Shown piece by piece: positions 668 to 53,501 of a stretch of DNA of 64,000 nucleotides. The position numbers and the translations under genes were made by a program. The stretch's first letter is position 1. Each line of letters starts with the position of its first letter. Below the pieces are notes generated by a model. The model ran no database searches, was not told the DNA's origin, and saw nothing but the letters and a program-made list of their open reading frames with translations. The stretch is from contig JAPLXB010000045.1 in the NCBI GenBank assembly GCA_026396285.1, positions 343 through 64,342 of the forward strand, written 5' to 3'. Source of the stretch: Candidatus Micrarchaeota archaeon (lineage in GTDB: Archaea; Micrarchaeota; Micrarchaeia; Norongarragalinales; JAPLXB01).

Positions 668-705
668 CTACTATTATAAAAAACGTTTTTCCTTAAATAC
701 TCCGC

Positions 706-835
706 TGCCTCGGTAGCTCAGTTGGTAGAGCGACGCGCTGTTAACGCGTAGGTCGGCCGTTCGAGGAACCTTTTTTGCTCGCTGACGCTCGCAAAAAAGC
801 TTCACCAAAAAAGGTTGGAAAATCGGCCCCGAGGC
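706..835 (+). tRNA. tRNA-Asn (anticodon GTT) carrying a ~57-nt intron inside the T-loop (about 764..820); CCA not encoded
   Basis: Acceptor 5' GCCTCGG (706..712) pairs perfectly with CCGAGGC (828..834), with discriminator G at 835. D-arm is GCTC/GAGC. Anticodon stem ACGCG/CGCGT with loop CTGTTAA gives anticodon GTT and A37. T-stem GGCCG (754..758) pairs with CGGCC (823..827). The T-loop TTCGA..AT is interrupted by an insert whose ends, AACCTTTTTT and AAAAAAGGTT, pair with each other. Confidence 0.7.
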
Positions 836-840
836 GCTTT

Positions 841-2061
841 CTATTTTTCAGCGCCCTTGTCTTCAAAGAGCGTTTTTTCTATTATTTTCCTGACCTTCAG
901 CGCCTCGTAACACAATTTTACAAGCGTGGCGTGCCCCCTGACGCCTTTTCCCGATTCGATGGTTGCGACGAGGCCGAGGGTCTCCAAGTCGTGCAGGTAC
1001 TCGCGGAACCAGCGCGACGTCCGCGGCTCCTGCCCCCCGCGCTTCGCCAGCGAACAATACCGTTCATAGACTTCGCTTGAGAAATACAGCTTGTCCCCGC
1101 CTTCCTCCACCAGTTTCCTGTACTTCGTGTCAAGGGCGAGGGATGCCAGCCCGTAGAGGACGAACTGCTGGTGCTCGGGAAGGGTTGAAATGACTTCGAA
1201 CGCCTTGTCCTCGTCCGCCATCTTCCGCGCCTCCTCCACTTCCTTGTCGGCCACCTTGAGCATGCCCCGGCCCTCGGCGAGCTCGCCTGCCCTGAACAAC
1301 AGGTTGAGTGCATAGCGCGCGTCGCCGTTTTCCTTCGCCGCGATGGCTGCGGCGAGGTTGAGCGCGCTTTCCTCGACCGCCCCGTCCTTGAACGCTTCGG
1401 GAACGCGCTGGAGCAGTATCCCCCTCAATTGGGTGGCGTCGTACGGCTGGAACACGATTTCCTCCTCGCACAGGGAGCTCTTGCTGCGGACGTCGAGGCG
1501 CTGCTTGAAACTGACCCTGTTGCTTATCCCGATCATCGAGATGTTGCCTTTCTTCAGGTCGTCGTTGGCGCGCGTGAGCGTGTAAACGAGGCTGTCCAAG
1601 TCCTTCACCACGTCCACTTCGTCGAGCGCGACCACGAACTGTTTTCCGCCGCTTTCCTCTATCCAGTCCAGCAGCTTCTCGTAGAGCACCGCGAACGAGT
1701 ACCCGGTTTTCGCGAAGTCGGGCTGGTGCTCGGAAATGCATTTCTGGACCGCCTTGTAGCGCGAGTCGTAGATGCGGCAGTTCATGTAAACCGTCTTGAC
1801 GCCGTCCTGTTTTTCGCCGGCGAGCTTCCGGATGACCTGCTTCACCGTCGCAGTCTTTCCGGTGCCCGTCTGTCCGTAAATGAAGAGGTTGCGGGGCTTT
1901 GAATTCTTGAGCGCGGGCGCAAGGGCCACCATGAGCCTCTTGACTTCGGCCTCGCGGAAAATAAGCTTGTTCGGCACGTAGTGGGGCGAAAGTATGTCCC
2001 GGTTCCTGAATACCGTGCCTTGTTCAAGTAATTCGCTGAATTCCCCCAACGTGCCCACCAA
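841..2061 (-). CDS. orc1: Orc1/Cdc6 replication initiator (AAA+ ATPase with winged helix)
   Basis: Walker A IYGQTGTGKT. Walker B VVALDEVD. Sensor motifs and a C-terminal winged-helix region are present. Overall similarity to archaeal Cdc6/Orc1 is strong, and an AT-rich intergenic region lies immediately upstream. Confidence 0.9.
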   Translation of the reverse strand: MVGTLGEFSELLEQGTVFRNRDILSPHYVPNKLIFREAEVKRLMVALAPALKNSKPRNLFIYGQTGTGKTATVKQVIRKLAGEKQDGVKTVYMNCRIYDSRYKAVQKCISEHQPDFAKTGYSFAVLYEKLLDWIEESGGKQFVVALDEVDVVKDLDSLVYTLTRANDDLKKGNISMIGISNRVSFKQRLDVRSKSSLCEEEIVFQPYDATQLRGILLQRVPEAFKDGAVEESALNLAAAIAAKENGDARYALNLLFRAGELAEGRGMLKVADKEVEEARKMADEDKAFEVISTLPEHQQFVLYGLASLALDTKYRKLVEEGGDKLYFSSEVYERYCSLAKRGGQEPRTSRWFREYLHDLETLGLVATIESGKGVRGHATLVKLCYEALKVRKIIEKTLFEDKGAEK

Positions 2062-2221: not shown

Positions 2222-2590
2222 ATGGGAATACTCACAAAACTGACAAAAGCCCTCGGCCTAGCCAAGGACATGAACATAGAGGACTTCATGACCGCCAGCG
2301 AGGCGGAGGAAGTGGACGTTCTCCACCAGGCCGCTGACTTCTACGTAAAGCCGATTGGCCTCCAGACAGACTCCGACATCAAGGCGGTCGAAGACGAATT
2401 GAACCAGAGGAACCTAATCCTGTTGAACATAACGCCGATTGCGAGGAACCCCGTGAAGCTCAAGAGCGCGGTCAACGAGCTCCGTTCCTTCGTGCACAAG
2501 ATAAACGGCGACATCGCGCGCATAGACGAGGACAAGATCCTCCTGACGCCCGCGAACGTCAAGATAGTCAAGAGGAAGAAACTCGGGTGA
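2222..2590 (+). CDS. sepF: SepF-like cell-division protein (FtsZ membrane anchor, DUF552)
   Basis: 122 aa. The N-terminal MGILTKLTKALG amphipathic helix and the C-terminal GDIARIDEDKILLTPANVKIVKRKKLG closely match the archaeal SepF pattern (GDIV..G.D.I.ITP..V.I.R.K). Confidence 0.75.
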   Translation: MGILTKLTKALGLAKDMNIEDFMTASEAEEVDVLHQAADFYVKPIGLQTDSDIKAVEDELNQRNLILLNITPIARNPVKLKSAVNELRSFVHKINGDIARIDEDKILLTPANVKIVKRKKLG

Positions 2591-11139: not shown

Positions 11140-12693
11140 TTGGGTTTCCGGGGTTTGGAACCGGGCCGTCTTGTCCGGCGGCGCCGGGTATTGGGCGCTG
11201 GAAGGCGCCTTTGCGGGAGTGGGTGTGGCTTGTTTCCTGAAATAACCGAATCTTACCTTCGAGAGAACTCGCTCGTCAAGCAGTTCATCGACTCCTACGA
11301 CAAGTTCGTTGAGAACGGGTTGCAGGAAATCGTTGACTCGCAGGCGGTGATAGAGCCGCAGATGGAGGGCGTGGTCGTGAAGCTAGGGCGGGTCAGCCTC
11401 GGCAGGCCGGTCGTCATCGAATACGACGGCTCCAAGAGGGAATTGTGGCCCATGGAGGCGAGGCTCAGGGACCTCACGTACTCGGCGCCGCTGTACCTGG
11501 AAATGACGCAGGCCGTGAACGGCGTTGAAAAGAAGCCCGAGAACGTTTACGTCGGCGAACTCCCGGTGATGCTGAAGTCAAAGCTGTGTTACCTTAGGGG
11601 AAAGAACGCGGACGAACTAGTCCAGGCCGGCGAGGACTCCCACGACCCCGGGGCGTACTTCATAATCAACGGCACCGAGAAATCGCTGATGACGCTGGAG
11701 GACCTGGCGCCGAACAGGATACTGGTGTCGCGCGAGAAGGACAAGGAGATGACGCAGGCCAAGGTTTTCTCCACGCGCCTCGGCTTCAGGGGACGCTGCA
11801 CCGTGGACAGGACGAAGGACGGGAAGTTTTACGTGACCATGCCTTCGTACAGCAAGGCGATTGAACTCATGCTGGTTCTCAAGGCCCTGGGATTGGACAA
11901 GGACGAAAAGGTGCTCGACGCTTTCCCGGAGCAGCCGGAAGTAAGGAACGACGTGCTCCTCAACCTCGAGTCCGACGAGGCGAAGGGCAGGAAGGACGCC
12001 CTTGAATCAATAGGCAAGCGCGCTGCGCCGGGCCAGCCAATTGAATACCAGATGAAGAGGGCGGAACTGCTGCTTGACCGGTATCTCCTGCCGCACATCG
12101 GCGTGAACGAGAAGGACCGGCTGGCGAAAGCGTATTTCCTGTGCAGGATGGCCGAACGGACGGTGTACGTCGCTTACAAGCTGCGGTCAGTCGAGGACAA
12201 GGACCACTACGCCAACAAGCGCCTCAAGATCTCGGGGAAACTGATGGAGGAACTGTTCAGGTACGCGTTCCAGTTTTTGGTCAAGGACGTGACTTACCAG
12301 ATGGAGCGCGCCAACGTCAGGGGCAGGAAAATCAGCATGTTCGCAATCGTGCGGCCTGACGCGCTTTCGGACAGGATAAAGTATTCCATGGCTACCGGCA
12401 ACTGGGTCGGGGGCCACACCGGCGTGTGCCAGCCTCTTGACCGCTACAACTACATTTCGGCAATGAGTTTCCTGCGGAGGGTGACGTCGCCGCTGGCGAA
12501 GAAGCACCCCCACCACAAGGCAAGGGACCTGCACGGCACGCACTGGGGCAGGCTTGACCCGAACGAGACTCCCGAGGGGCCGAACTGCGGCTTGGTGAAG
12601 AACCTGGCGCTGTTCTGCGAAATCACGACCGGCGCCGAAGAGGAGCCGCTGGAAGCGATGTTCAAGAAAGCGGGGGTCACGCTGCGCGCGTGA
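11140..12693 (+). CDS. rpoB2: DNA-directed RNA polymerase subunit B'' (N-terminal half of a split rpoB)
   Basis: Conserved RpoB N-terminal motifs SYLRENSLVKQFIDSYDKFVENGLQEIV and downstream rudder/lobe regions. The gene ends with a stop 27 nt before B'. The N-terminus from the ATG at 11140 is an odd Arg-rich 30 aa, so the true start may be the TTG at 11230, just before ITESYL. Confidence 0.85.
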   Translation: MGFRGLEPGRLVRRRRVLGAGRRLCGSGCGLFPEITESYLRENSLVKQFIDSYDKFVENGLQEIVDSQAVIEPQMEGVVVKLGRVSLGRPVVIEYDGSKRELWPMEARLRDLTYSAPLYLEMTQAVNGVEKKPENVYVGELPVMLKSKLCYLRGKNADELVQAGEDSHDPGAYFIINGTEKSLMTLEDLAPNRILVSREKDKEMTQAKVFSTRLGFRGRCTVDRTKDGKFYVTMPSYSKAIELMLVLKALGLDKDEKVLDAFPEQPEVRNDVLLNLESDEAKGRKDALESIGKRAAPGQPIEYQMKRAELLLDRYLLPHIGVNEKDRLAKAYFLCRMAERTVYVAYKLRSVEDKDHYANKRLKISGKLMEELFRYAFQFLVKDVTYQMERANVRGRKISMFAIVRPDALSDRIKYSMATGNWVGGHTGVCQPLDRYNYISAMSFLRRVTSPLAKKHPHHKARDLHGTHWGRLDPNETPEGPNCGLVKNLALFCEITTGAEEEPLEAMFKKAGVTLRA

Positions 12694-12720: not shown

Positions 12721-14562
12721 GTGGTTGGAATGAAGGTAAGCGTTTACTTGAACGGGCGGTTCATCGGGTTCACCGAGGAAGGCGAGAAACTCGCCCAGGA
12801 CATCCGCGACAAGAGGCGCGGCGGGGAGCTTGACCCCCAGGCCAACGTCGCCTACTATCCGCGCACCAACGAAGTCTTCGTCAACACCGACGAAGGCCGG
12901 GCGAGGCGGCCGCTGATAGTCGTCAAGCGCGGGAAAAGCATGTTCACTCCCCAGCACGCGGAAAAACTGAGGCAGAGACAGCTCGCTTGGAGCGGCCTCG
13001 TGAAGGAAGGCGTGGTTGAATACCTTGACGCGGAAGAGGAGGAGAACGCCTACGTTGCGATGGACGAAACCGAACTGGACCGCGCCACCGGGGCCGGAAA
13101 GGAGGAGCGCTTCACGCACCTTGAAATAGACCCTGCAAGCATCCTTGGCTACGCGTCCGCCCAGGTCCCGTTCCCGGAGCACAGCATGGCGCCGAGGGTC
13201 CTCATGGCCGCCCAGCACACGAAGCAGAGCCTCGGGCTGTACGCGTCAAATTACAACATGAGGACCGAGACAAGGGCGTATGTCCTCAACTATCCCCAGA
13301 AACCGCTTACAAAGACGAGGGTCTACGACTCCCTGGAGAACTACCGGCGCGCCAGCGGCCAGAACTTCGTCGTCGCGGTGCTTTCCTACCGCGGGTACAA
13401 CCTGAACGACGCGGTCGTCCTCAACAAGGACGCGATCGACCGCAGCCTTGCGCGGAGCGTCTTCCTCAGGACCTACGCCGACGAGGAGAGGCGCTATCCG
13501 GGCGGGCAGAAGGACAAGTTCGAGATCCCGCCTGAGTTCGTCCAAGGCTATCTCGGGGAACCCGATTACGCCAACCTTGACGAGAAGGGAGTGATCAACC
13601 CGGATACGCCAGTCGGGCCTGACTCGGTCCTCGTGGGCAAGACTTCGCCGCCGAGGTTCTTGAAGGAAATAAGCGCACTTGACGTGGAGACCGAGAAGCG
13701 GAGGGAGAATTCGCTGGCGGTCAGGAGCAACGAGTCAGGGGTCGTCGACGCGGTCATCATGTCCGAGACCACCTCTGGCAACAGGCTAGTGAAAGTCCGC
13801 GTGAGGAAGACGAACGTCCCGGAAATCGGGGACAAGTTCGCGTCGCGCTTCGGCCAAAAAGGGATCGTGTCAATGCTTGTTCCCCAGAGGGACCTGCCGT
13901 TCACCGCCTCGGGCGTCGTGCCCGACTTGATGATCAACCCCCACGCCATTCCCGGAAGAATGACTGCAGGCCACCTGATTGAAATGCTGGCAGGCAAGGC
14001 CGCATCCATCGACGGCAGGCGCAGGGACGGCACCGCGTTCACCGGCGAAAAGCGCGAGGACTTCGAGAAGACGCTCGCGGAAAACGGGTTCAGGTACACC
14101 GGCGAGGAACTCCTCTACGACGGGGTGACCGGCAAGATGATGCCGGCCAAGATTTTCGTGGGCGTGATTTACTACCAGCGCCTCCACCACCTCGTGAGCC
14201 TCAAGATGCACGCGCGCTCGCGCGGGCCCGTGCAGATGCTTACCCACCAGCCGACCGAGGGAAGGGCCCGCGAAGGCGGGTTGAGGCTGGGAGAGATGGA
14301 ACGCGACTGCTTCATAGGCTTCGGCGCGGCCGCGCTGCTGAAGGAGAGGATGATTGACTCAAGCGACAAGACCACGGAACTCGTGTGCGAGGACTGCGGG
14401 TCGCTGGGAGTCGCGGACAAGATAAAGAACCGCATTTACTGCCCCTTGTGCGAGTCCACGAACGTGCACGAGGTGGAAATGAGTTACGCGTTCAAGCTCC
14501 TATTGGACGAGATGAAGAGCATAGGGATTTTCCCGAAACTCCAGTTGAAGTCAAAAGGATGA
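12721..14562 (+). CDS. rpoB1: DNA-directed RNA polymerase subunit B' (C-terminal half of a split rpoB)
   Basis: Universal RpoB motifs GDKFASRFGQKG, NPHAIPGRMTAGHL and GGLRLGEMERDC, plus C-terminal Zn-binding CEDCGS...CPLCES. Confidence 0.9.
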   Translation: MVGMKVSVYLNGRFIGFTEEGEKLAQDIRDKRRGGELDPQANVAYYPRTNEVFVNTDEGRARRPLIVVKRGKSMFTPQHAEKLRQRQLAWSGLVKEGVVEYLDAEEEENAYVAMDETELDRATGAGKEERFTHLEIDPASILGYASAQVPFPEHSMAPRVLMAAQHTKQSLGLYASNYNMRTETRAYVLNYPQKPLTKTRVYDSLENYRRASGQNFVVAVLSYRGYNLNDAVVLNKDAIDRSLARSVFLRTYADEERRYPGGQKDKFEIPPEFVQGYLGEPDYANLDEKGVINPDTPVGPDSVLVGKTSPPRFLKEISALDVETEKRRENSLAVRSNESGVVDAVIMSETTSGNRLVKVRVRKTNVPEIGDKFASRFGQKGIVSMLVPQRDLPFTASGVVPDLMINPHAIPGRMTAGHLIEMLAGKAASIDGRRRDGTAFTGEKREDFEKTLAENGFRYTGEELLYDGVTGKMMPAKIFVGVIYYQRLHHLVSLKMHARSRGPVQMLTHQPTEGRAREGGLRLGEMERDCFIGFGAAALLKERMIDSSDKTTELVCEDCGSLGVADKIKNRIYCPLCESTNVHEVEMSYAFKLLLDEMKSIGIFPKLQLKSKG

Positions 14563-14563
14563 T

Positions 14564-17500
14564 TTGATTGGGTGCAGGTGTGTTTTTGTGATGAAGGCGA
14601 TTTCAGGCATTGAATTCGGCGTCTTTTCCCCGGAGAACGTGAGGAAAATGAGCGCGGTCAAGGTCACCGTGCCGGACACCTACGACGAGGACGGGTACCC
14701 CATCAGCGGCGGGCTCGCCGACCAGCATCTGGGCGTCATTGACCCCGGCCTCAAGTGCAAGACGTGCGGCGGCAGGATGAAGACGTGCGGCGGCCACTTC
14801 GGCCACATCGAGCTCGTCCGGCCGGTCGTGCACGTGGGTTTCGCCAAGCCGGTTTACCTGCTGTTGCGCGCGACGTGCAGGAAGTGCGGCCGCGCCATGA
14901 CCGCGGAATCGATTGAAAAGGCGAAGCGCATATCCGAGTGCCCGCACTGCGGCGAGCAGCAGAAAACCATCAAGTTCGTGAAGCCGACGAGTTTCTACGA
15001 GGAGGACCGCAGGGTTCTCCCGAACGAGGTCAGGGAACGCCTTGAACGCATTACCGACGAGGATTTGGCCGCGTGGGGGATAAAGCTGAGGCCCGAGTGG
15101 ATGGTGCTCACGATCCTGCTCGTGCCGCCGGTGACTGTCAGGCCAAGCATCACCCTTGAAACCGGGGAAAGAAGCGAGGACGACCTGACCCACAAGCTCG
15201 TGGACATTTTGAGGATCAACCAGCGCCTCGGGGAAAACATTGACGCGGGAGCGCCCCAGCTAATCATAGAGGACTTGTGGGAGCTTTTGCAGTACCACGT
15301 TGCGACGTTCTTTGACAACGAGACCGCGGGAATCCCGCCGGCGCGCCACAGGTCCGGCAGGCAGTTGAAGACGCTTTTCCAGCGCCTCAAGGGCAAGGAA
15401 GGAAGGTTCCGCTACAACCTGTCCGGCAAGAGGGTCAACTTTTCCGCGCGCACGGTGATTTCGCCTGACCCGATGCTGGGGATAAACGAGCTCGGCATAC
15501 CGCAGGAAATCGCCAAGGAACTCACGCTGCCGGTGTCGGTCACCGAATGGAACAAGGAGAACATGAAGGAGCTGGTGAAGGCGAACGCGGAGAAGATAAA
15601 CTACATAATCAGGCCGGACGGACGGAGGAAGAAGCTCATTCCCAGCAACGTCGACGAAATCGTCGCCGAACTTGCGCCGGGTTACGTGATTGAAAGGCAG
15701 TTGATGGACGGCGACCTAGTGATATTCAACCGCCAGCCGTCCCTCCACCGCGTGAGCATGATGTGCCACTCGGTGCGCGTGCTGCCGGGCAAGACGTTCA
15801 GGTTCAACGTCGCGGTCTGCGCGCCGTACAACGCGGACTTCGACGGGGACGAAATGAACATCCACGTGCCACAGAACGAGGAGGCGCAGAGCGAGGCGGA
15901 CATACTCATGAAGGTGCAGGACCAGATTCTTTCGCCGCGGAACTCGGAGCCGCTCATAGCGCCGATACTTGACCAAGTGAGCGGGCTTTACCTCTTGACT
16001 ATTGACGGCACGACGTTCACTAGGGCGGAGGCGTGCTCGCTGCTCGCAAGCGCCGGCATCGTGGAGGAAGTGGGTGGCGACAAGACGACCGGCAAGGAAC
16101 TGTTTTCGTTCCTGCTTCCCAAGGGATTTAACGTCGAGTACGTGAACCGCAGCAAGGAGGCCGTGAAGATAAAGAACGGCAAACTGTTGTCCGGCCACGT
16201 GGACAGCAAGATAAGCGACCTGCTCACCAAGCAGATTTTCGACGACTTCGGTTCCGAGGCGGCAAGGAAATTCCTGGACGCGGCCACGAGGATTTCAACG
16301 GAAGTGATCACGCGCTACGGCCTGTCGCTCAGCCTCGAGGACTACCACCTCAGCGAGGAGGGCGTGAAGGAAATAAGGGACATCTGGCGCGACGGAAGGA
16401 AAAAAGTGAAATCCCTTGTCCAACAGTACCGCGAGGGGAAACTCGAGAGAAAGCCGGGGAAAACACTGAAGGAGACCCTCGAGGAACTGGTCATGAATGT
16501 CCTTGAGCACACGAGGGACTCGTGCGGCCACCACCTGCTCCACCACATCAAGCGCGTGCCGTTGAAGGCGTTCGGCGCGCCGGTCAACCACAATTCCGCG
16601 CTCCTCATGAGCAGGGCGGGCGCGAGGGGAAAGCTCCTGAACGTGGTGCAGATGGCCGCGCTCGTTGGCCAGCAGGCCGTGAGGGGCAAGAGGATGAAGT
16701 CGGGTTACAAGAACAGGATACTCCCGCACTTCAAGAAAGGCGACCTGGGCGACGACGCAAGGGGTTTCGTGAGCAGCAGCTACGTAGAAGGCCTTGACCC
16801 GCTCCAGTACTTCTTCCACGCGGCCGGAGGCCGCGATTCGGTCGTGGACAAGGGCGTCAACCCCGCGAAGACGGGTTACATGCAGCGCAGGCTCATCAAC
16901 GCCCTCCAGGACATGATGGTTACCCCGAGCCGCTGCGTCAAGGACGCGGAAGGCAGCATAATCCAGTTCAAGTACGGCGACGACGGAATGGACATCGCAG
17001 GCAAGCCCATTTCACCGGGCGAGCCGGTGGGAGTCGTGGCCGCCCAAAGCATAGGCGAGCCCGGCACCCAGATGACGCTGAGGACATTCCACTACGCGGG
17101 AGTCGCTTCACTGGCGCAGCTTGGTTTCACGCGCCTCGTCGAAGTCGTGGACGCGAGGAAGACGCCCAAGAACCCGGTCATGGAAGTTTACCTGAAAAAA
17201 GAGTATTCCAAGGACCTGGACAAGGTGAAGGCCATCGCCTCCAGCATAGAGGAGATAACGGTTGACAAGATTGCGTCGGTCAAGGAGGAGTTCTCGAAGA
17301 AACTAATCCGCATCACGCTCGACACCGACGCGCTGGACGAGATGAAGATAAAGCCCGAGGAAGTGACCGAGAAAATAAAGGCCATCGAGCCCGCGACCAC
17401 GCGCGACAAGAACGTGATAACGGTGAAGACAAAAGCAGAGGACTTGAAGAGCATAAGGAAGATAACCACGCGGCTCAAGGAAATGACGCTAAAGGGGATA

Positions 17501-17980
17501 AAGGGCATCGCGCGCGCCATCATCGTTGAAATGAACGGCGAACTGACGCTCGCCACCGAGGGAAGCAACCTTGAGGAAGTGTTCAAGATACCCGCAGTGG
17601 ACGCGGTGCGCACGAGCACGAACGACATTGTCGAGATATCCAAGGTGCTGGGCATAGAGGCTGCGCGCAACTCCATCATAACCGAGATAGTGAAAGTCCT
17701 CGATGCACAGGATTTGAAAGTGGACCTGAGGCACATCATGCTCATTGCCGACGCGATGACGCTCAAGGGCGAAGTGAAGTCAATCGGCCGCCACGGGCTG
17801 GCAGGCGAAAAGGCGTCTGTCCTGGCGCGCGCGGCGTTCGAGGAGACCGCGAAGCACTTGCTCAAGGCGTGCGTCTACGGCGAAAGCGACCCGCTGAAGG
17901 GGGTCACTGAAAACATAATCATCGGCCAGACCATTCCCTGCGGCACCGGGACAGTAAACCTGGAAATGGACGTCGACTAG
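14564..17980 (+). CDS. rpoA: DNA-directed RNA polymerase subunit A, unsplit (A' and A'' regions in one 1138-aa reading frame)
   Basis: N-terminal Zn motif CKTCGG..CGGHFGH. Catalytic NADFDGDEMN. Bridge helix AKTGYMQRRLINALQDMM. About 50 aa later, with no intervening stop, come the A''-specific AAQSIGEPGTQMTLRTFHYAGV and the C-terminal jaw/cleft. The probable true start is MKAISGIEFG at 14591. Confidence 0.85.
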   Translation: MIGCRCVFVMKAISGIEFGVFSPENVRKMSAVKVTVPDTYDEDGYPISGGLADQHLGVIDPGLKCKTCGGRMKTCGGHFGHIELVRPVVHVGFAKPVYLLLRATCRKCGRAMTAESIEKAKRISECPHCGEQQKTIKFVKPTSFYEEDRRVLPNEVRERLERITDEDLAAWGIKLRPEWMVLTILLVPPVTVRPSITLETGERSEDDLTHKLVDILRINQRLGENIDAGAPQLIIEDLWELLQYHVATFFDNETAGIPPARHRSGRQLKTLFQRLKGKEGRFRYNLSGKRVNFSARTVISPDPMLGINELGIPQEIAKELTLPVSVTEWNKENMKELVKANAEKINYIIRPDGRRKKLIPSNVDEIVAELAPGYVIERQLMDGDLVIFNRQPSLHRVSMMCHSVRVLPGKTFRFNVAVCAPYNADFDGDEMNIHVPQNEEAQSEADILMKVQDQILSPRNSEPLIAPILDQVSGLYLLTIDGTTFTRAEACSLLASAGIVEEVGGDKTTGKELFSFLLPKGFNVEYVNRSKEAVKIKNGKLLSGHVDSKISDLLTKQIFDDFGSEAARKFLDAATRISTEVITRYGLSLSLEDYHLSEEGVKEIRDIWRDGRKKVKSLVQQYREGKLERKPGKTLKETLEELVMNVLEHTRDSCGHHLLHHIKRVPLKAFGAPVNHNSALLMSRAGARGKLLNVVQMAALVGQQAVRGKRMKSGYKNRILPHFKKGDLGDDARGFVSSSYVEGLDPLQYFFHAAGGRDSVVDKGVNPAKTGYMQRRLINALQDMMVTPSRCVKDAEGSIIQFKYGDDGMDIAGKPISPGEPVGVVAAQSIGEPGTQMTLRTFHYAGVASLAQLGFTRLVEVVDARKTPKNPVMEVYLKKEYSKDLDKVKAIASSIEEITVDKIASVKEEFSKKLIRITLDTDALDEMKIKPEEVTEKIKAIEPATTRDKNVITVKTKAEDLKSIRKITTRLKEMTLKGIKGIARAIIVEMNGELTLATEGSNLEEVFKIPAVDAVRTSTNDIVEISKVLGIEAARNSIITEIVKVLDAQDLKVDLRHIMLIADAMTLKGEVKSIGRHGLAGEKASVLARAAFEETAKHLLKACVYGESDPLKGVTENIIIGQTIPCGTGTVNLEMDVD

Positions 17981-20573: not shown

Positions 20574-23500
20574 TCAGACGCCGTGCTTCTTCGCCTGCGT
20601 CTCCACCTTCTGGGTGAGGGACTCCATGTAAATGTCCACTATGTTGAACGCGCCTTTCTTGAGCTTGTCGCGGACGATGTTCAGTTCCAGTTCAAGGTCA
20701 AGCACGTCCACTCCCTTCGCTTTTATGGCGGCAACCTTCTCCTCCAGCACCTCTATCCGCTGGTTGTACTCGTCGTACTTCTGGAGCTCGGTTTCCGAAA
20801 GGCGGACGATGTTGTGCTGCAGCGCCCTGTAGGTCACGAAGTACGGCGCGCCCCTGTTGTACTCGGGGTTGTGCATCATGCCGCTCCCGATTGCGGACCG
20901 GACGATGCTCCTCGCGGTCTCGTCCCCGAACTTGGTCCTGATACGCTCCAAGTCGCCCTCGTACTTGGTGCGCATCTGGATTTCCGTGGAAATGTTTGCC
21001 TTGATTTCGCCCACGAAGTCGCTCAGCACCTGCGAAATGAGTACCAGGCCCAGGCCCCATTTCCTGTACTCCCTCGCCGCCCGCTCTATCTGCACGAGGC
21101 CCTCGCCGCTTCCCCCGAACTTGGGCAGCAGGCGGTGGACTTCGTCGTAAACGAACAGCACCTTGAGCTTCGGCGACTCCTCGGGCTGGCTGGCAAACAC
21201 CTGCTTGACCGTGTTGGCGTAGAAAGAGTCAACCTGCTGCGGCGTCAGCCGCGAAGTGACGAACACCGTTATTTCGCCGGGCCTCGTCAGTTTCTTGAGG
21301 TCAACCTGCTGGTCGGCGTTCTTGACTACGACGATGTTCCCGTCAAAGGCGCGCGCCTCGCTCAGCGACATCCCGAACTTCTTGTACGCCGCCAGCATCT
21401 CCCTGTTCTTCTGCGGCCTCAGGAAACCGCTCCACTGCGCGGTCGGGTCAAAGACGACCACCGCGATGCCTTTCTTGAGCGCCTCTTCCGCAATCACCTG
21501 CGCCGCCACCGTCTTTCCGGACCCGCTTCCTCCCGCGACCAGCGTGTGCATAGTGAGTTTTTGGAAGTCCACGAACGCCCGCACGTTCGTTTCCGCGATG
21601 AGGCCGAGGAACCCGCCGTCGGGCCCTGGCTGGGGCAGCGTCGCGAAGTCAATTTTCGACAAATACCTTTTCATCTTCGCCTTCTGGTACCGGTCGTAGT
21701 AAGCGTAACTCGTGCCGGCGGTCACTGCGGCTCCGGCGAGCAGCAGGTAGAACAGCGGGACGCCCATGAAACGCATTTCAAGCAGGCCAATCTGCACCTT
21801 GATGTTCGCGAACGCCGAAATCGCGCGCGTCGTGTTCAGGACAAGCCGGTAGTAGGCGGTCGCCTTGAGCATGTAAGTGCCGACCGCAAGGTCCGGCGGC
21901 ACCGTGATTGACTTCGTTATAGTCTGCGAGCTCTCGAACTCAAACGGGTCCCCTGACTCGAAAACCACCGCGTCAGTGTCGTAGTTTATCAGGTAGAGCC
22001 TGACGATGCCGCTGACGCTCTTGGTGGCGCCGGTGTTGAACAAGTTGAGGTCCACCTTGAAACTCTGGCCCGGCGACACGTCGGTCTGGTACGGGACTAG
22101 TTTCAAGTCAATGAACTTCTCCTTCGTCTCGCCAACGCGGATGGTGACTGGCATTACCGCCAAGCCGAGTTCGTTAGTGAAAATAATCTGGCCGTAGTAC
22201 ATGCCTGGTTTTGTGTCCTCGGGGATGCTGATTGCGGCCATTACCTCCGCGGTCTCTCCCGGCGCAAGGGTAACCGAAGGCCTGACCGAGAAGAACGGGA
22301 CCGTGTCGCCGGTCGCCTGGATTGCGACGGTGGTCGCGGAAGCGTTCTGGATGTTCTTCACGCGCAGGGTGACCATCGTCTCCTCGCCAAGGAGCAGTTC
22401 GAGGTAAATGGTCTGGGGATAAATATCGAGCCCGATTTTGTTCTCCATTCCTCCGGTCAGGTTCAGGACGGCTTCCAGCGTCTCGTTCGTGGAGTTCAGT
22501 ATCTCTCCCTTGGCCTGGGAAATGATTTTCTGGACTTCCTTCGCAATCTCCTCGAGCGACGGCCCGATTGCCCCCACCGCCATCGCCGGGGGAGCGGTAT
22601 ACCCTGGCTGAGCCCCTCCACCGCCGCCGTAAACGGTGACGTACGTCGCCCCGGGCGCCACGCCCAACACGCTCTCGCCGGCAGCGTAGGCGCTGAAACC
22701 GGTTATGACCACGGTTATCGAGCCCGGCATCCCTCCCTGCCTGCCGACGACGTTCGTCAACGAAATCCAGCCGCTCGGGCACGCGAGCGAAGTGAAGCCC
22801 CAGTCCGCGCACCGCGCCACGAACACGTTGTCAATGTTGTCGACCTGGGTCACGTCAAACGGCAGCGCCAGCGTGCCCGAAAACGACGGCGCCGGACGGC
22901 CGTCGGTGTAACTGAAGTTCAGCGCGAGGATGAACAGTTTCCTCATTGACGGCACGAGCGCCGCGTACACCGGAACCGAGTCTATGCCGATTGAAAGGTT
23001 CTCCATCTGCGAGAACGACACGCCCGACAACACGAGCGTCGCGTTCAACGCCTTTATCACCACGTCATAGGTCCTGTTGTAGACGTTGACCGAATAGTGG
23101 CCGGTCGCGTTAGTTGAGAAATTCGAGACTGTGACGTTTGTGCCGGGCCTGAGGAGCGTGAAGTTCGTCACCGTCCCCCCGCCAACGGAATTGGCTATGC
23201 GGCCCACGAAGTTCGCGATGTTGTAATAAACCTCGAACGGCGCGGAAACGTTGCGCTGGTTGCCGTCCAAGTCAGTCGCGGACACGACTGCGGTGTACCC
23301 GCCCAGGATGGAGAAGTTGGACGAGACCCTCCACGTGCCGCTCACAGTGTTCCCTGAAACCAGTGACATCGTGTGAGTGGTCACGGTGCTGTCCGGCCAC
23401 GTCACGAACGCGGTGACAGTCGAAACCTGCCTGTTGTCGGAAACGGCGGCTGAAACCACTGCGTTGCTTCCCTGCTGCGCGTCCGTGGTCGTCACGCTCA

Positions 23501-26500
23501 CCGACGGCTGCGTGATGTCCTTGTAGTAGAGGATTGACGCGTTCCTTCTGGTGAATATAACCGGCCCGTTCGGCGACGAGTAGTTTCCAATGACTACGAA
23601 ATCATAGAACTGCGCGTCGGTCTTGGACGGCGCAGTGAACGAAAGGATTTTGGAACTGCCCGCCGCGGTCATGTTGACTTGCGAGGCTTCGGTGTCGTTG
23701 ACGAACACGCGGTAGGTGACGTTTTCCGTGATGTCCGCCGGCGTGTAAAAGTCCACGAGCCGCACGGTGGCGTTGATTGAGTCGCCGGGAATGATTTGCG
23801 GCGGTGCGGAAACGCTTTCCAATAGTATTCCGTAGAAGAACGAGTTGAATGAGATGTTGACTTGCTTGTTGCCACTGCTTTCATTCACCTGCAGCACTCC
23901 TGCATAGTGGGCGTTGGTCTCATTGGCAGTGTAATTCATGCGAATGGCGAACGACTGGCCGCCTGAAAGCGACGTGGACGAGTCGAGCAGGTTCGCGAAC
24001 GTCGTCATGTTTCCAAACAGCCCGAACTGGAAGTTCAGGAACGCGTCAGCGGTACCGGTGTGCGTGATGACCGTGTCGCTGTTGACCTTGTTCTCGTTCG
24101 ACACCGCGTTTATGACCATGGTGTCGCGGCTGAGCGACCAGGAATAGTTCAAAGGCGTCACAACGTTTGCTGTGAATCCCTTCGTGTAGCCCGTTCCCTG
24201 CACGCTGCACGAAAAGCTCCTGCCCCCGACTCCCCCGCTGGAGGACACGCCATAGTCCACTCCGACGGTCGTGGATATGTTCACCGGGTTGTCCAAGGCG
24301 ACTGTCCGCGGCGAAGGCGAATAGGAAACCGTGACATTGGGGCTGATTGACGTGGTGGAGACTGCGAATGGAACGTTGTCGTTGCCCGTCGCCTCTACTG
24401 TGAGGTTTTGCACCGTGCTGTGGCCGTGCTCGATGGTCAGCGAAGCCGGGAACGTGACGGTGAAGTTCGGGTTGGACAAGACGCTTATCAAAACCGGGGA
24501 TGCCGTGTAAATGCCGCTGACGCCGTTCGGATTAACCCACTTGACTATTGGGTTGAAGTAGTAGGTTCCAAGGGCCCTGGGCGGCACGCTGACGTTGACG
24601 AACGTGCTGAACCAGCCCGGAGCGAGGTTCGCGTATGAAAGGTTCGTGTAACTGAAGCCGCTCGTGTTCGCGCCGCTGAACGAGCCGGTCACGTTCACCG
24701 AATAGCCCTTCACGTTGCCGCCGTTTACGATGAGAAACGGGATGGAAACGTTCTTTCCAACTGATTTCGTCACGTTCGCGACGCTCACCGCCTGGCCCGA
24801 GGCATTAATGTTCGTGGTGGGAACCACTTGGAACGAGAACTGCGTGGAATTAAGCTGGCCCGTGACGTCATTCACTCCAAAGGTCACGGCGTAGTCGTAA
24901 ACTCCCGTGATGTTCGTGTTGCCGAAGTCCACGTAAAACCTCCTGACGTCCTTGCAGAGGCCGCCGCAGTAGATGTCCGGGTCCTCCCAGTCGCTTGGGG
25001 GCGCAAAAGACCAGGAATAGCCGGGGGCCGTGACGTTGAAGAAGGCGGTCGAAGCGTTCAAGCCGTTGATTTCGTCGTCCGTGGCCCACACCTCAAGGGT
25101 GACGGACTTGTTGAATTCGACGAAACTCCTCCTAACTCCTTCCGTGATTGTTGACACGTTTATGAACTGGGGCGGCGCGTTGCTGACGTTGAAGAACACG
25201 TAAACGTCCCTGTTCGTCGGGTCCGCGGAACCGCTTTGCAAATGCGCCCTGATGCCATACCCGGGGGAGGCGTTGCTGCTCTCCTGGCCACTCTGGCCGA
25301 AGCAGATGTTTACAGAAGAGCCTTTTGAAACGGAAACCGTGTTGTTGTTGCAGTTGACTCCGCCGATGTTGATGTTCGGGCCGCACGTGCCTATGTAAGT
25401 GCAGTTCTTGTACCCGGGAACCGCGTCATACGACACCGAAAAGGTCAGGTCGATGTTTCCCGGGTTTTCAATGGTGTAATTTGCTATGATTCCCTTCTGG
25501 TTCAGCGCGAACGCGTTGGACTGGTTCGCGGACGGCACGATGACCCACGACGCGTTCGTGAGGACGTTGACGTTCACTTGAAGCGACTGGTTCACGTCCT
25601 GGCTCCCAGAGTAATACCCGGTCGTGTTCAGGAATCCATGGTATGCGCCGGGCGCCGCCTGGGCCGGGACCGACACGCTGAACGTCACGGTCTTCGTCGA
25701 GCCGGAGTTGGGAATCTTGGTGAAGCTCGTCCACTGGCTCGGGGAGAAGGAAATCCAAGAGGAGTTTATGGCGGTGGCAGTGAAGTTGTTGTTGACCGGG
25801 CCGAGCACAACGTTCCCGTCATTCGTCACCCCGATGGCTATTGTCTGCGACTGTCCCGGATACAAGTTCATGTCGAGCGAGGGAGTGATGTTGTATGACA
25901 GGTGCTTCGTCACCGCGCCGCCGATTTGCGTGGATGTGGTTATTGTCGTGTTGGATAAGTCGTTGTTCGTCCACGTCCCGTTCCAAGTCACCTGGTAATA
26001 CTGGCCCGGATTCAGCCCGGCGGGCAGCGTGACGTTGAAAACGCTGTAACAGTTGCCGCTCTGGATGAGTATGGCGCCGCACGTGGTGCCAAGTTCCACG
26101 ATAGACTCCATTAAGCCTATCTGGGACACGCCGATGTCCGGGTACGTCATGTCCGCCTTGTTGCTGTTGTTAAGACTAACAGTGATGTTCACTGAATAAG
26201 GCACGCTCGGCGTGTCAACGGTCGCGGGCGCGTTGAGCGTCCCGTCCGCCAGCTGTTCCTGGAACCAATCCTGGCCCGCCTTTTCTGCATAATCGTATTT
26301 CGTGCTGCTGTTGATGCCGGTCGCGAGTCGCCGGTCGAGTTGTAGAGCGTGATGCTCCGGGCGCCGTTCAACTGCGGCGCTGCCGACGCGTTGACCCACG
26401 TGATGTAAACCTCGTTCAGGAACGGCGTCTTGGAAGAGTCGTTTGAAGCGAAAACCGCGCGGTACCTCAGGTAACGCGAAACCGGTGCCTTGGCGAAGTC

Positions 26501-26633
26501 GCCGTAAAAGCCGCCGTACGCGGCAATCGTGGAAGAATTCGAATAGGAGTCGAGGGGCGTCCACTTGTAACTGTTGTTCGACGACGACGTGTACATGGTG
26601 ATGTTCGTTCCCGGCGGCTCGGTCGTCCACCAC
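20574..26633 (-). CDS. giant surface protein, C-terminal portion (ORF 2 of 2): Asn/Thr/Ser-rich Ig-like region, transmembrane helix, cytoplasmic HerA/FtsK-superfamily ATPase
   Basis: The first ~100 aa of the ORF (MVDDRAAGNEHHHVHVV...) are out-of-frame junk. Genuine sequence starts at ...ATGINSSTKYDYAEKAGQDW. A single hydrophobic helix GVPLFYLLLAGAAVTAG lies near the C-terminus. It is followed by a 379-aa cytoplasmic domain with Walker A LVAGGSGSGKT (21510..21533), Walker B VLFVYDEVH (21135..21158), and an arginine-finger region REYRKWGLGLVLISQ typical of DUF87/HerA/VirB4-like ATPases. Confidence 0.8.
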   Translation of the reverse strand: MVDDRAAGNEHHHVHVVVEQQLQVDAPRLLFEFFHDCRVRRLLRRLRQGTGFALPEVPRGFRFKRLFQDAVPERGLHHVGQRVGSAAVERRPEHHALQLDRRLATGINSSTKYDYAEKAGQDWFQEQLADGTLNAPATVDTPSVPYSVNITVSLNNSNKADMTYPDIGVSQIGLMESIVELGTTCGAILIQSGNCYSVFNVTLPAGLNPGQYYQVTWNGTWTNNDLSNTTITTSTQIGGAVTKHLSYNITPSLDMNLYPGQSQTIAIGVTNDGNVVLGPVNNNFTATAINSSWISFSPSQWTSFTKIPNSGSTKTVTFSVSVPAQAAPGAYHGFLNTTGYYSGSQDVNQSLQVNVNVLTNASWVIVPSANQSNAFALNQKGIIANYTIENPGNIDLTFSVSYDAVPGYKNCTYIGTCGPNINIGGVNCNNNTVSVSKGSSVNICFGQSGQESSNASPGYGIRAHLQSGSADPTNRDVYVFFNVSNAPPQFINVSTITEGVRRSFVEFNKSVTLEVWATDDEINGLNASTAFFNVTAPGYSWSFAPPSDWEDPDIYCGGLCKDVRRFYVDFGNTNITGVYDYAVTFGVNDVTGQLNSTQFSFQVVPTTNINASGQAVSVANVTKSVGKNVSIPFLIVNGGNVKGYSVNVTGSFSGANTSGFSYTNLSYANLAPGWFSTFVNVSVPPRALGTYYFNPIVKWVNPNGVSGIYTASPVLISVLSNPNFTVTFPASLTIEHGHSTVQNLTVEATGNDNVPFAVSTTSISPNVTVSYSPSPRTVALDNPVNISTTVGVDYGVSSSGGVGGRSFSCSVQGTGYTKGFTANVVTPLNYSWSLSRDTMVINAVSNENKVNSDTVITHTGTADAFLNFQFGLFGNMTTFANLLDSSTSLSGGQSFAIRMNYTANETNAHYAGVLQVNESSGNKQVNISFNSFFYGILLESVSAPPQIIPGDSINATVRLVDFYTPADITENVTYRVFVNDTEASQVNMTAAGSSKILSFTAPSKTDAQFYDFVVIGNYSSPNGPVIFTRRNASILYYKDITQPSVSVTTTDAQQGSNAVVSAAVSDNRQVSTVTAFVTWPDSTVTTHTMSLVSGNTVSGTWRVSSNFSILGGYTAVVSATDLDGNQRNVSAPFEVYYNIANFVGRIANSVGGGTVTNFTLLRPGTNVTVSNFSTNATGHYSVNVYNRTYDVVIKALNATLVLSGVSFSQMENLSIGIDSVPVYAALVPSMRKLFILALNFSYTDGRPAPSFSGTLALPFDVTQVDNIDNVFVARCADWGFTSLACPSGWISLTNVVGRQGGMPGSITVVITGFSAYAAGESVLGVAPGATYVTVYGGGGGAQPGYTAPPAMAVGAIGPSLEEIAKEVQKIISQAKGEILNSTNETLEAVLNLTGGMENKIGLDIYPQTIYLELLLGEETMVTLRVKNIQNASATTVAIQATGDTVPFFSVRPSVTLAPGETAEVMAAISIPEDTKPGMYYGQIIFTNELGLAVMPVTIRVGETKEKFIDLKLVPYQTDVSPGQSFKVDLNLFNTGATKSVSGIVRLYLINYDTDAVVFESGDPFEFESSQTITKSITVPPDLAVGTYMLKATAYYRLVLNTTRAISAFANIKVQIGLLEMRFMGVPLFYLLLAGAAVTAGTSYAYYDRYQKAKMKRYLSKIDFATLPQPGPDGGFLGLIAETNVRAFVDFQKLTMHTLVAGGSGSGKTVAAQVIAEEALKKGIAVVVFDPTAQWSGFLRPQKNREMLAAYKKFGMSLSEARAFDGNIVVVKNADQQVDLKKLTRPGEITVFVTSRLTPQQVDSFYANTVKQVFASQPEESPKLKVLFVYDEVHRLLPKFGGSGEGLVQIERAAREYRKWGLGLVLISQVLSDFVGEIKANISTEIQMRTKYEGDLERIRTKFGDETARSIVRSAIGSGMMHNPEYNRGAPYFVTYRALQHNIVRLSETELQKYDEYNQRIEVLEEKVAAIKAKGVDVLDLELELNIVRDKLKKGAFNIVDIYMESLTQKVETQAKKHGV

Positions 26634-32879: not shown

Positions 32880-33084
32880 CGGGGTTGCCAGCTGCCCGGA
32901 AAAAGGGCGCAAGGAAAATAATATAAACGCCCCGCCCCCACTTTCTCTTCACTCCTTTTTTGGAATTGAATGGGGAGTAAACCCGGACTGCTTGGGCGAC
33001 GGCTTCGCCATCGCCGGTGTAGCAGGGTTTGAGAACCATTCCGAAAACGTTTCACGTTTTTTCGGATTGCTTGAAGTGCGTGCA

Positions 33085-41556: not shown

Positions 41557-42120
41557 CTACAAGTACTCCCTCGGCTTGTTCTTCTTCCTAGCCATCAGTT
41601 CCTGGAGCGCGCTGATTTTCACGTGCATTTCGGCGTACTTCGCCTTCGCCGCCGGGTTTTCCGCCTTTTCGTTCCTTAGCCCCGCCCTTTCCCGGAGGTA
41701 TCTCGGCTCGGCCAATTCCATTATCTTGAAAGGAATCCCCTCGGCGTCGACTTCCAGCTTCCTGATGTCCCGGTGCCTCATGAAATCGTCAAGGGCTTCG
41801 GAAAGGGTGCCGAGTTTCTGGCCCGCGCCACTGCCGCCTTCCTCCGCCAGCCGCCTCTTTTCCATGAACGCCTCCAGGCTTTTCTTGTTGACGAACAGTT
41901 TCTTCCTGAACCGTCCCCACTTCCAAGGCACCATCCTTCCGGATATCTTGCGCTGCGAGCGAAGGCTGTGAACGAAGTCAATGGTGCCGTCCAGTTTTTC
42001 CGCAGCCTCCTCAGTCGTGTAGTGCGTGTCCCTGAGTCCCGCAGGTATTTCCGCCGCCCTGTCCGCGCCGGCGCCCAATTCGTTCGCCCGCGGTTTTTCC
42101 GCCCTGCCGCGTTCCCTCAT
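41557..42120 (-). CDS. excisionase-family HTH DNA-binding protein (paralogue 1)
   Basis: HYTTEEAAEKLDGTIDFVHSLRSQRKISG matches the excisionase/MerR-like HTH pattern (lt..EaA..lgvs..tvyrl...g.i). The rest is a basic coiled region. Confidence 0.5.
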   Translation of the reverse strand: MRERGRAEKPRANELGAGADRAAEIPAGLRDTHYTTEEAAEKLDGTIDFVHSLRSQRKISGRMVPWKWGRFRKKLFVNKKSLEAFMEKRRLAEEGGSGAGQKLGTLSEALDDFMRHRDIRKLEVDAEGIPFKIMELAEPRYLRERAGLRNEKAENPAAKAKYAEMHVKISALQELMARKKNKPREYL

Positions 42121-42674
42121 GTCCTCTTCCCCCAGCGCTTTGCCAGCATCAGTTTGCCCAAGGCATTCATCCTGTCAAGCACCTCGTTGTGTTCCCTTAC
42201 CGCCGACGGGCCCTCGGCAAGGCGCTTCTTCAATTCCAGCATCCTTTCCTTGTAACCTGCCTCGGCCCGTTTGATAATTTTGTTAGGAATCCCACGAGTC
42301 AAGGCACTCATTTCACGGATGTTCCTTTTCTTAGCATATTTGTCCAGCGCCCCCTCTAGTGCTTGCATCCATTTCTCGCGCGACATTCCGCCAGCGGAGG
42401 GCTTTTCCGCGGCTTTTTCCAGCGCTTTTTCCCTCGCATATTCCAGGACCGCATTCTTTTCCAGCAGGAAAACGCGCCTCCCAAGAGCCGGGTCCCATGG
42501 CGCGATGCCCGGAATGATTTTCCTGCTGTAAAGCACGGCGGCATTACTCGACTGTACGCCTATTTTCTCCGCCGCTTCCCGCGTAGTGAAATGCGTCTTC
42601 CTGAAGCGCTTCAATTCAACCGATTTCCACGCGTCCCGCCTAGGCGTCACGGCCAACCAAACGCACCCCCTCAA
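42117..42674 (-). CDS. excisionase-family HTH DNA-binding protein (paralogue 2)
   Basis: HFTTREAAEKIGVQSSNAAVLYSRKIIPG uses the same architecture as the neighbouring gene. Its stop overlaps the paralogue 1 start by 4 nt. Confidence 0.5.
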   Translation of the reverse strand: MRGCVWLAVTPRRDAWKSVELKRFRKTHFTTREAAEKIGVQSSNAAVLYSRKIIPGIAPWDPALGRRVFLLEKNAVLEYAREKALEKAAEKPSAGGMSREKWMQALEGALDKYAKKRNIREMSALTRGIPNKIIKRAEAGYKERMLELKKRLAEGPSAVREHNEVLDRMNALGKLMLAKRWGKRT

Positions 42675-42722: not shown

Positions 42723-42886
42723 GCCGGGGTGGCAGAGCGGTTATTGCGCCAGAACCTTTTCTTTCTTCCGAAGAAAGTAAAGCTTCACCAAAAGAAAGAA
42801 GGATTTAGGCGAACCTTGAGGCCGCTTCGCGGCAGGGGAGCTGGTGTCCCTCACGGGACGCGGGAGTTCGAATCTCCCCCCCGGCG
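42723..42886 (+). tRNA. class II (long variable arm; Leu/Ser-type) tRNA interrupted by an intron of about 80 nt; anticodon not resolved by eye
   Basis: Acceptor GCCGGGG (42723..42729) pairs perfectly with CCCCGGC (42879..42885), with discriminator G. D-arm is GCA...TGC. Intact T-arm GGGAG TTCGAAT CTCCC. Variable-arm hairpin GTCCC-TCAC-GGGAC. The segment 42751..42809 is homologous to the intron of the tRNA at 706..835. Confidence 0.5.
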
Positions 42887-42964
42887 TACGATGCTGGAAA
42901 GGCGCTTCGCGCCTTTCGGTGTAGCGGATGGGCGTCCGCCGCCCCGCCTGCAAACGGTAGTCAA

Positions 42965-53422: not shown

Positions 53423-53501
53423 GCGCCTACACCGACGATGGCCGGGCCATCGTCCAGTCAGTTTGATTGCCTGGATTCCTCTGGGCGGCGTATTTAAATA
53501 A

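Follow-up and report, generated by a model that had tools for sequence, protein, structure and literature searches.

The 64-kb stretch of a Candidatus Micrarchaeota contig analysed here (64,000 nt of JAPLXB010000045.1, hereafter the window) carries on its plus strand, at 707-836, a tRNA-Asn(GUU) gene whose T-loop is interrupted by a 57-nt insert, and it is highly probable that this is a genuine gene whose insert is spliced from the precursor as an intron. This analysis establishes the gene, its exact junctions and the splice-site motif, shows that the motif is conserved and covaries in relatives, and demonstrates selection on the exons. The original prediction, made from the letters alone, had already recognized tRNA-Asn(GUU), its canonical stems and anticodon loop, and the 57-nt T-loop insert, and all of these are confirmed. 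Its coordinates (706-835) need correcting to 707-836, and the insert does not lie at 58/59 (TTCGA↓...↓AT) as it had proposed, but one nucleotide further 3', at 59/60 (TTCGAG↓...↓T).

All four stems of the tRNA are fully Watson-Crick, the anticodon is GTT, and G18, G19, U54, U55, C56, A58 and the G53-C61 pair are present (Table 1). When the insert is cut out in silico, the product is 73-74 nt long and is accepted by ARAGORN as tRNA-Asn(gtt); several cut pairs bring back a 7-nt T-loop in this way. A covariance model derived from 11 Micrarchaeota tRNA-Asn sequences, either spliced or intronless, aligned 707-836 end to end (81.2 bits, E = 1e-16), a match that is partly by construction, as the spliced sequence from the window is one of the 11. 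ARAGORN, Rfam, this clade model and a T-arm scan found no second tRNA-Asn within the window, and the same T-arm scan found no tRNA there beyond tRNA-Asn and a tRNA-Ser described below. The combination that the original prediction had named as fatal to it, a better uninterrupted tRNA-Asn and a poor score at this locus, was thus not encountered in the window.

The exact junctions come from close relatives. In locus L082 and in metagenome contigs L088 and L089 (79% Orc1 identity), the same gene lies between orc1 and a conserved open reading frame (ORF) of ~216 aa, with exons as in the window and an uninterrupted T-arm, GGCCG-TTCGAGT-CGGCC. Cutting the window gene at G765↓G766 and A822↓U823 yields a sequence identical at 73/73 positions to the spliced tRNAs of these three relatives, and because no other cut pair gives the orthologue T-loop TTCGAGT, the intron is 766-822, at site 59/60. 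The exons are 100% conserved, whereas identity falls to 61-64% in the 60 nt upstream and to ~77% in the adjacent orc1 DNA; the exons are therefore under purifying selection.

Precisely at these junctions lies a bulge-helix-bulge (BHB)-like motif, bearing out the earlier suggestion of a relaxed BHB substrate. As the rule of Marck and Grosjean (2003) is cited in PMC3239211 and PMC4090602, a BHB has one 3-nt bulge per strand, each on the 3' side of a 4-bp helix, and is cut after the second base of each bulge; the cuts set by the orthologues fall after the second base of both 3-nt bulges. The complementarity noted earlier between the insert ends, AACCTTTTTT(G) at 767-777 and (C)AAAAAAGGTT at 806-816, extends to 11 bp. 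Measured against the strict 3-4-3 definition, both bulges and both flanking helices are in register, and the central helix has 3 bp (U760-A820, U761-A819 and C762-G818) plus a G763×G817 mismatch; the motif is of the hBHBh' type with one mismatch, a mildly relaxed substrate. When the insert was shuffled 200,000 times, 0.25% of the shuffles had three or more of the four central pairs and at least 4 bp of h' in register, and none reached the observed three pairs and 11 bp, so that a chance origin of the motif is excluded.

The position of the intron mirrors that of the canonical one, as the T-arm has a 5-bp stem and a 7-nt loop like the anticodon arm, and 59/60 is the exact counterpart of 37/38. 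In both cases the intron sits between the sixth and seventh loop bases, the first four loop bases face the 3' end of the intron (loop positions 32-35 in the canonical BHB helix; Marck and Grosjean 2003, as cited in PMC3239211 and PMC4090602), and the cuts fall after the second base of 3-nt bulges. The window intron differs from the canonical 37/38 intron in lying in the T-arm and in the G·G mismatch of its central helix.

Further support comes from more distant orthologues. A genome scan by Orc1 alignment gave 80 Micrarchaeota loci, to which protein look-ups added closer relatives; tRNA-Asn was located in the Orc1 loci by a short acceptor/D-arm pattern (fuzzy matching of the window 5' exon yielded none there), and the genes were spliced manually with BHB guidance and the products checked with ARAGORN. 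When metagenomes were scanned with the 3' portion of the 5' exon, two orthologues with D-loop introns emerged and no further copy with a T-loop intron. tRNA-Asn lies near orc1 in many loci, and every gene listed in Table 1, once spliced, is a 73-nt tRNA-Asn(gtt). Across 17 tRNA-Asn genes the number of introns runs from zero to four, at four fixed positions only (17/18, 30/31, 37/38 and 59/60), and in the eleven distinct spliced sequences pairing holds at 99.6% of cells, with compensatory double changes at 10 stem pairs. Introns at 59/60 occur in four other tRNA-Asn genes (L001, L041, L062 and L071), and all five have a 5' bulge B1 of A58 G59↓N and a 3' bulge B2 of AA↓U60. Within this small sample of five the BHB covaries: L001 has the central helix UUCG/CGAA and L041, L062 and L071 have UUCA/UGAA, a compensatory change from G57-C to A57-U, and the h' helix begins with U-A in L041 and with C-G in L062. 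The 16-nt intron of L071 is an hBH-type intron without h', like a published case from ARMAN-2.

Introns at 59/60 are already documented for Micrarchaeota, and the position is among the listed non-canonical ones (PMC4090602); the window case differs in the isoacceptor, the intron length and the full intron helix. In ARMAN-2, a member of the same phylum, 56% of tRNA genes are disrupted, tRNA-Cys has a 13-nt relaxed-BHB intron at 59/60, tRNA-Pro has introns at 53/54 and 59/60, and the recombinant three-unit ε2 endonuclease cleaves a 59/60 substrate in vitro (Fujishima et al. 2011, PMC3239211). The window resembles ARMAN-2 in the T-loop position, the relaxed BHB and a genome rich in disrupted tRNA genes, and differs from its tRNA-Cys in isoacceptor (Asn), in length (57 versus 13 nt) and in having a full outer intron helix (hBHBh' plus a mismatch versus hBH); cleavage, demonstrated for ARMAN-2, is deduced for the window. 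The tRNA-Asn genes of three relatives (L041, L062 and L071), which come from three different metagenome-assembled genome (MAG) studies and differ from one another by compensatory changes, each contain four introns and go beyond the published maximum of three per archaeal tRNA (PMC3239211, PMC4033280, PMC8450103). A single orthologous gene beside orc1 with zero to four introns in close relatives amounts to a natural experiment on the gain and loss of archaeal tRNA introns.

We infer the splicing pathway and its enzymes as follows. Transcription would start from the A/T-rich box at 671-682, a putative archaeal promoter by its sequence (the L081 and L082 orthologues are preceded at an equal distance by a (T/A)ATATAAA(A)CG box that resembles it, in an upstream region otherwise only 61-64% identical), and would give a pre-tRNA with the 57-nt intron between T-loop positions 59 and 60. 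In this precursor U54-C56 would form a short helix with the intron 3' end, between the T-stem and the 11-bp intron hairpin, thereby placing the splice sites in 3-nt bulges. EndA would cut after the second base of each bulge, and by analogy with ARMAN-2 the endonuclease of the host is most likely of the broad-specificity ε2 type. An RtcB-type ligase would then join the exons to restore the T-loop UUCGAGU (junction ...GGCCGUUCGAG↓UCGGCC...), and a CCA-adding enzyme would supply the CCA, which, as predicted, is not encoded (CTT follows the discriminator).

Several observations weigh against splicing at this locus. Neither an EndA (PF01974, PF02778) nor an RtcB domain was detected in the ~57 window ORFs at two E-value cut-offs. 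The central helix consists of just three Watson-Crick pairs and a G·G mismatch, which a strict α4/α'2-type endonuclease might not cut. The folding check proposed with the original prediction gave a divided answer: the minimum free energy (MFE) structure from RNAfold forms the acceptor stem, D-stem, T-stem and the 11-bp h', but leaves the 3-bp central helix open; in favour of the BHB, enforcing it costs only ~1.2 kcal/mol. A second, intact tRNA-Asn may also lie elsewhere in the genome, outside the window. Such a gene is presupposed by the idea that 707-836 is a pseudogene, inactivated by a mobile element resembling a miniature inverted-repeat transposable element (MITE) with terminal inverted repeats of 10-11 bp, the functional tRNA-Asn being elsewhere. 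The insert does have terminal inverted repeats (767-777 and 806-816), a related copy 42 kb away suggests that the sequence has moved, ARAGORN sees no tRNA here and Rfam aligns a truncated one only, and the analysis covers 64 kb of the genome. We nevertheless regard a pseudogene as very unlikely, given that excising the inverted-repeat unit, with or without the flanking GG, gives no T-loop, while the BHB-predicted cuts alone do. Target-site duplication is absent, neither the window nor ~0.9 Mb of Micrarchaeota loci contains more copies, and the sole other copy lies within a tRNA gene at a BHB-competent site with junctions confirmed by an intronless orthologue. The perfect conservation of the exons between diverged flanks, and the same site being filled, with covariation, in four other lineages, argue in the same direction. 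On these grounds (no duplication, two copies that both lie in tRNA genes at BHB sites, and no T-loop after excision at the repeat ends) a MITE or insertion sequence was rejected as the identity of the insert.

That the source is a MAG raises the thought of a chimeric join inside the tRNA gene, through faulty assembly or binning; its probability is negligible, as the same 130 nt recur base for base in an independent Logan assembly of run SRR20698646, and removal of the insert restores a perfect tRNA around a register-perfect BHB. Two other identities for the insert were considered and set aside. Group I and group II self-splicing introns have catalytic cores of more than 200 nt that are recognizable by Rfam models, and the insert has 57 nt and no Rfam match at E ≤ 10. 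The box C/D intron of euryarchaeal tRNA-Trp is comparable in that the window intron is of the same order of size as an archaeal C/D sRNA and has one CUGA (781-784), but it lacks a C box (RUGAUGA) and a second D box, matches no Rfam snoRNA, and is not a C/D RNA.

The copy 42 kb away belongs to a class II tRNA-Ser(UGA) gene with two introns, found through a weak match of the tRNA-Asn covariance model (42826-42886) beside a 15-nt exact match to the Asn intron. Spliced in silico, it becomes an 85-nt tRNA-Ser(tga), and an intronless orthologue (L092 2904-2988) confirms both of its intron junctions. The Asn 59/60 intron and the Ser 30/31 intron are identical in 44/68 aligned columns (z = 6.0; 0/5000 shuffles reach the score), while eight unrelated Micrarchaeota introns aligned with the Asn intron as a control gave z from -0.3 to 1.9. 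On their sequences the two introns are clearly homologous: common to both are (G)AACCUUUU at the 5' end, AAGG(U/A)U, GG at the start of a central-helix strand, AA↓ at the 3' end, and an exact 15-mer, AAAGCUUCACCAAAA, in an apical part unconstrained by the BHB. The nearest relatives have neither intron: tRNA-Asn of L081 and L082 lacks a T-loop intron, and tRNA-Ser(UGA) lacks the 30/31 intron both in L091 (the same assembly as L081; ~2452-2587, plus strand), where it has a 37/38 and a ~38-nt T-loop intron, and in L092, where it is intronless.

This homology, and the absence of both introns from the nearest relatives, suggest transposition, and we lean, if only slightly, towards the Asn 59/60 intron being a recent transposed copy, with the Ser 30/31 intron as the other member of the family. 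A BHB intron would then have transposed into the T-loop, at a site whose structure imitates that of the canonical one in the anticodon loop. The intron strands H' of the central helix, GGAA in Asn and GGCG in Ser, differ in precisely those two bases that must pair with U54 and U55, and the G that faces G57 is kept; the G·G mismatch is thus a possible footprint of a Ser donor. Alternatively, the 59/60 intron could be the last survivor of an ancestral tRNA-Asn with four introns that were differentially lost across Micrarchaeota lineages, an option we hold to be real if rather unlikely. That just four positions are used across the 17 genes, with all four occupied in L041, L062 and L071 and subsets in the others, fits differential loss equally well and thus counts against transposition; intron states are scattered on an Orc1 neighbour-joining tree, and the 37/38 introns of L081 and L041 both start with ACCAAC. 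Yet the window intron does not significantly resemble other 59/60 introns (L001, z = 0.2; L041, z = 1.8) and strongly resembles the tRNA-Ser intron of its own genome, tRNA-Asn has no T-loop intron in the two closest relatives, and recurrent insertion is to be expected at a site that is a structural twin of 37/38. Transposed non-canonical tRNA introns are known from Thermoproteales (Fujishima et al. 2010, in the accounts given by PMC4033280 and PMC4090602). As far as those accounts go, the likeness lies in similar introns in different tRNAs and positions of one genome and in rapid turnover between relatives, and the difference in the lineage (DPANN/Micrarchaeota), in a likely ε2 rather than (αβ)2 endonuclease, and in the two family members seen in the 64-kb window. 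A pair of introns resembling donor and recipient therefore makes transposition testable in a second, unrelated lineage, probably with a different endonuclease architecture.

A more speculative possibility, to which we give little credence, is that the intron is a mobile structured RNA element rather than merely a passive BHB insert. The Asn 59/60 and Ser 30/31 introns have in common a core, GAACCUUUU-[variable hairpin]-AAAAGCUUCACCAAAA, and its gapped form AACCTTTT-N(5-35)-AAGCTTCACCAAAA matched 12 stretches (~7 distinct sequences) in a viral collection, against 0 stretches and 5 stretches (one distinct sequence) for two composition-matched control patterns. One contig of 35.5 kb is giant-virus-like (eukaryote-type topoisomerase II, C2H2 zinc fingers, DUF5832) and has at least six intergenic copies of the core, often in tandem, each with a different GC-rich hairpin and compensatory changes. 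The viral core has no Rfam family, and a literature search for the 14-mer found no match among the papers covered. Several other viral matches look like coincidences within coding sequences, and the recurrence could be partly coincidental; we do not take it as evidence of horizontal transfer. If the intron were such an element, introns would be gained when it lands at an exon site with AG↓ and four bases that pair with its 3' end, and the G·G mismatch would be a trace left unrepaired after a jump from Ser to Asn.

Close relatives have swapped intron positions in both tRNA-Asn and tRNA-Ser. We also observe a lineage-specific structured module made up of UGG, a 9-bp hairpin (7/9 pairs with compensatory changes) and CGGUGUAG. 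Of its three window copies, one is in the 5' leader of an L30e-like gene, another immediately precedes the start codon of an ACT-domain-like ORF and the third follows tRNA-Ser closely on its 3' side, and in L091 one copy makes up most of the tRNA-Ser T-loop intron. Searching ~0.9 Mb of other Micrarchaeota loci with a covariance model of the module gave no additional copy, and there is no Rfam match. Its GGUG could be a Shine-Dalgarno element.

Both tRNA genes of the window escape standard annotation. The check with ARAGORN proposed in the original prediction succeeds only after the insert is removed: on the full, unspliced window the program reports zero tRNAs, and in its intron mode it miscalls the tRNA-Ser gene as tRNA-Ala. 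The Rfam tRNA model gives a single match, 707-768 on the plus strand (35.3 bits), which is a false alignment that pairs acceptor nucleotides 708-712 with CGAGG at 762-766 (T-loop bases and the first base of the intron) and passes over the T-arm. At the gathering threshold and at E ≤ 10 this is the only Rfam match, with none for the intron, the tRNA-Ser gene, group I/II introns or snoRNAs. Thus both genes are invisible to ARAGORN and Rfam reaches one of them by a false alignment, from which a pipeline would derive a truncated tRNA of the wrong extent. Micrarchaeota MAGs annotated by such tools would appear to be without tRNA-Asn and tRNA-Ser, and apparent tRNA loss of this kind skews inferences of completeness, auxotrophy or codon usage for DPANN archaea.

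Table 1. Features of the tRNA-Asn and tRNA-Ser genes, tRNA-Asn introns of the relatives, and related elements (window positions unless a locus is named; ↓ marks a splice cut)
Feature	Location or sequence	Strand	Remarks
Putative A/T-rich TATA-like promoter	671..682	+	TATTATAAAAAA, then CG; ~25-36 nt before mature 5' end
5' exon of tRNA-Asn, positions 1-59	707..765	+	same as exon of orthologues L082, L088, L089
Acceptor stem	GCCTCGG 707-713 with CCGAGGC 829-835	+	5' strand is tRNA positions 1-7; read from sequence
Positions 8-9	TA	+	read from sequence
D arm	GCTC / AGTTGGTA / GAGC	+	read from sequence
Position 26	G	+	read from sequence
Anticodon arm	ACGCG / CTGTTAA / CGCGT	+	read from sequence
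Variable region	AGGTC	+	read from sequence
T-stem	GGCCG 755-759 with CGGCC 824-828	+	also outer BHB helix h
T-loop halves	TTCGAG, then 57-nt insert, then T	+	read from sequence
Central BHB helix, exon strand H (U54 U55 C56 G57)	760..763	+	pairs with 817-820
5' bulge B1, A764 G765↓G766 (A58 G59↓G)	764..766	+	inferred cut after G765
Intron, 57 nt, site 59/60	766..822	+	borders from orthologue T-loop TTCGAGT and BHB geometry
Intron helix h', 5' strand, AACCUUUUUUG	767..777	+	11 bp with 806-816; in MFE fold
Intron helix h', 3' strand, CAAAAAAGGUU	806..816	+	in MFE fold; shuffle test
Central BHB helix, intron strand H' (GGAA)	817..820	+	starts with GG, as H' (GGCG) of tRNA-Ser intron
3' bulge B2, A821 A822↓U823 (A A↓U60)	821..823	+	inferred cut after A822
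3' exon, positions 60-73 including G73	823..836	+	no CCA encoded
Discriminator	G836 (G73)	+	then CTT; no CCA encoded
T-rich trailer	837-848	+	directly after 3' exon
tRNA-Asn introns, window	59/60 (57 nt)		
tRNA-Asn introns, L081	17/18 (31), 30/31 (37), 37/38 (50 nt)		
tRNA-Asn introns, L082, L088, L089	17/18 (34 nt)		
tRNA-Asn introns, L001	30/31 (44), 59/60 (95 nt)		
tRNA-Asn introns, L041, L062, L071	17/18, 30/31, 37/38, 59/60 (16-18 nt)		
tRNA-Asn introns, L018, L032, L059	17/18, 30/31, 37/38		
tRNA-Asn introns, L011	17/18		
tRNA-Asn introns, L012	37/38		
tRNA-Asn introns, L005, L013, L076, L087	none		
Four-intron tRNA-Asn genes	L041 8073-8219, L062 7333-7477, L071 8740-8884	-	ARAGORN sees tRNA only after all four are removed
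Class II tRNA-Ser(UGA) gene	42723..42886	+	exons 42723-42752, 42814-42820, 42839-42886; missed by ARAGORN and Rfam
tRNA-Ser 30/31 intron, 61 nt	42753..42813	+	central helix CGCC/GGCG (4 bp), B1 AG↓A, B2 AA↓C
tRNA-Ser 37/38 intron, 18 nt, canonical site	42821..42838	+	strict hBHBh': CUUG/CAGG, bulges AG↓G and GG↓A, h' CCGC/GCGG
UGG-hairpin-CGGUGUAG module, window	32985-33026 (+), 42887-42928 (+), 53423-53464 (-)		
UGG-hairpin-CGGUGUAG module, L091	2532-2573 and 2590-2631	+	
Intron core GAACCTTTT-[hairpin]-CAAAAGCTTCACCAAAA in viral contigs	L100 256-307, 11090-11206, 11857-11948 (-); L102 837-886 (-); L103 1476-1523 (+)		

The gene neighbourhood identifies the host as an archaeon of the Candidatus Micrarchaeota (DPANN). 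The convergent neighbour of tRNA-Asn, at 841-2061 on the minus strand, encodes Orc1/Cdc6, the 402-aa form of which is 100% identical to a protein from a Candidatus Micrarchaeota MAG, and all strong Orc1 homologues are from Micrarchaeota. Other genes in the window belong to the usual core of archaea and encode SepF, RpoH, a split RpoB, RpoA, S7, aEF-2, aEF-1α and S10. RpoA is a single ORF of 1138 aa (14564-17980, plus strand) with Rpb1 domains 1-5 and no separate A'' gene after it, and RpoB is in two parts (11140-12693 and 12721-14562); an unsplit RpoA is unusual among archaea and may be of phylogenetic interest.

Further along the window, two giant ORFs stand in tandem on the minus strand: one of 2019 aa (20574-26633) with a HerA-like ATPase domain near its C-terminus, and one of 1892 aa (26189-31867) with degenerate repeats of ~31-33 aa. 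As predicted, the two overlap at their ends by ~445 nt, which makes it probable that the downstream ORF actually starts at an internal position. The stretch at 27.3-32.2 kb was considered as an ORF-free, repeat-rich region, a description we reject, as it is actually the second of these ORFs. Between rpS10 and tRNA-Ser, two tandem paralogous ORFs of 187 and 185 aa (41557-42674, minus strand), with the motif ...F/HxTTxEAAEK... and no Pfam match, form a ~1.1-kb insertion that is absent from L091 and L092 and may be the remnant of a mobile element. Finally, an A/T-rich spacer of 160 bp (2062-2221) separates the divergent orc1/cdc6 and sepF genes, a pair kept in the related loci with fetched gene tables (L081, L084-L087 and L090), and this spacer is a candidate replication origin.

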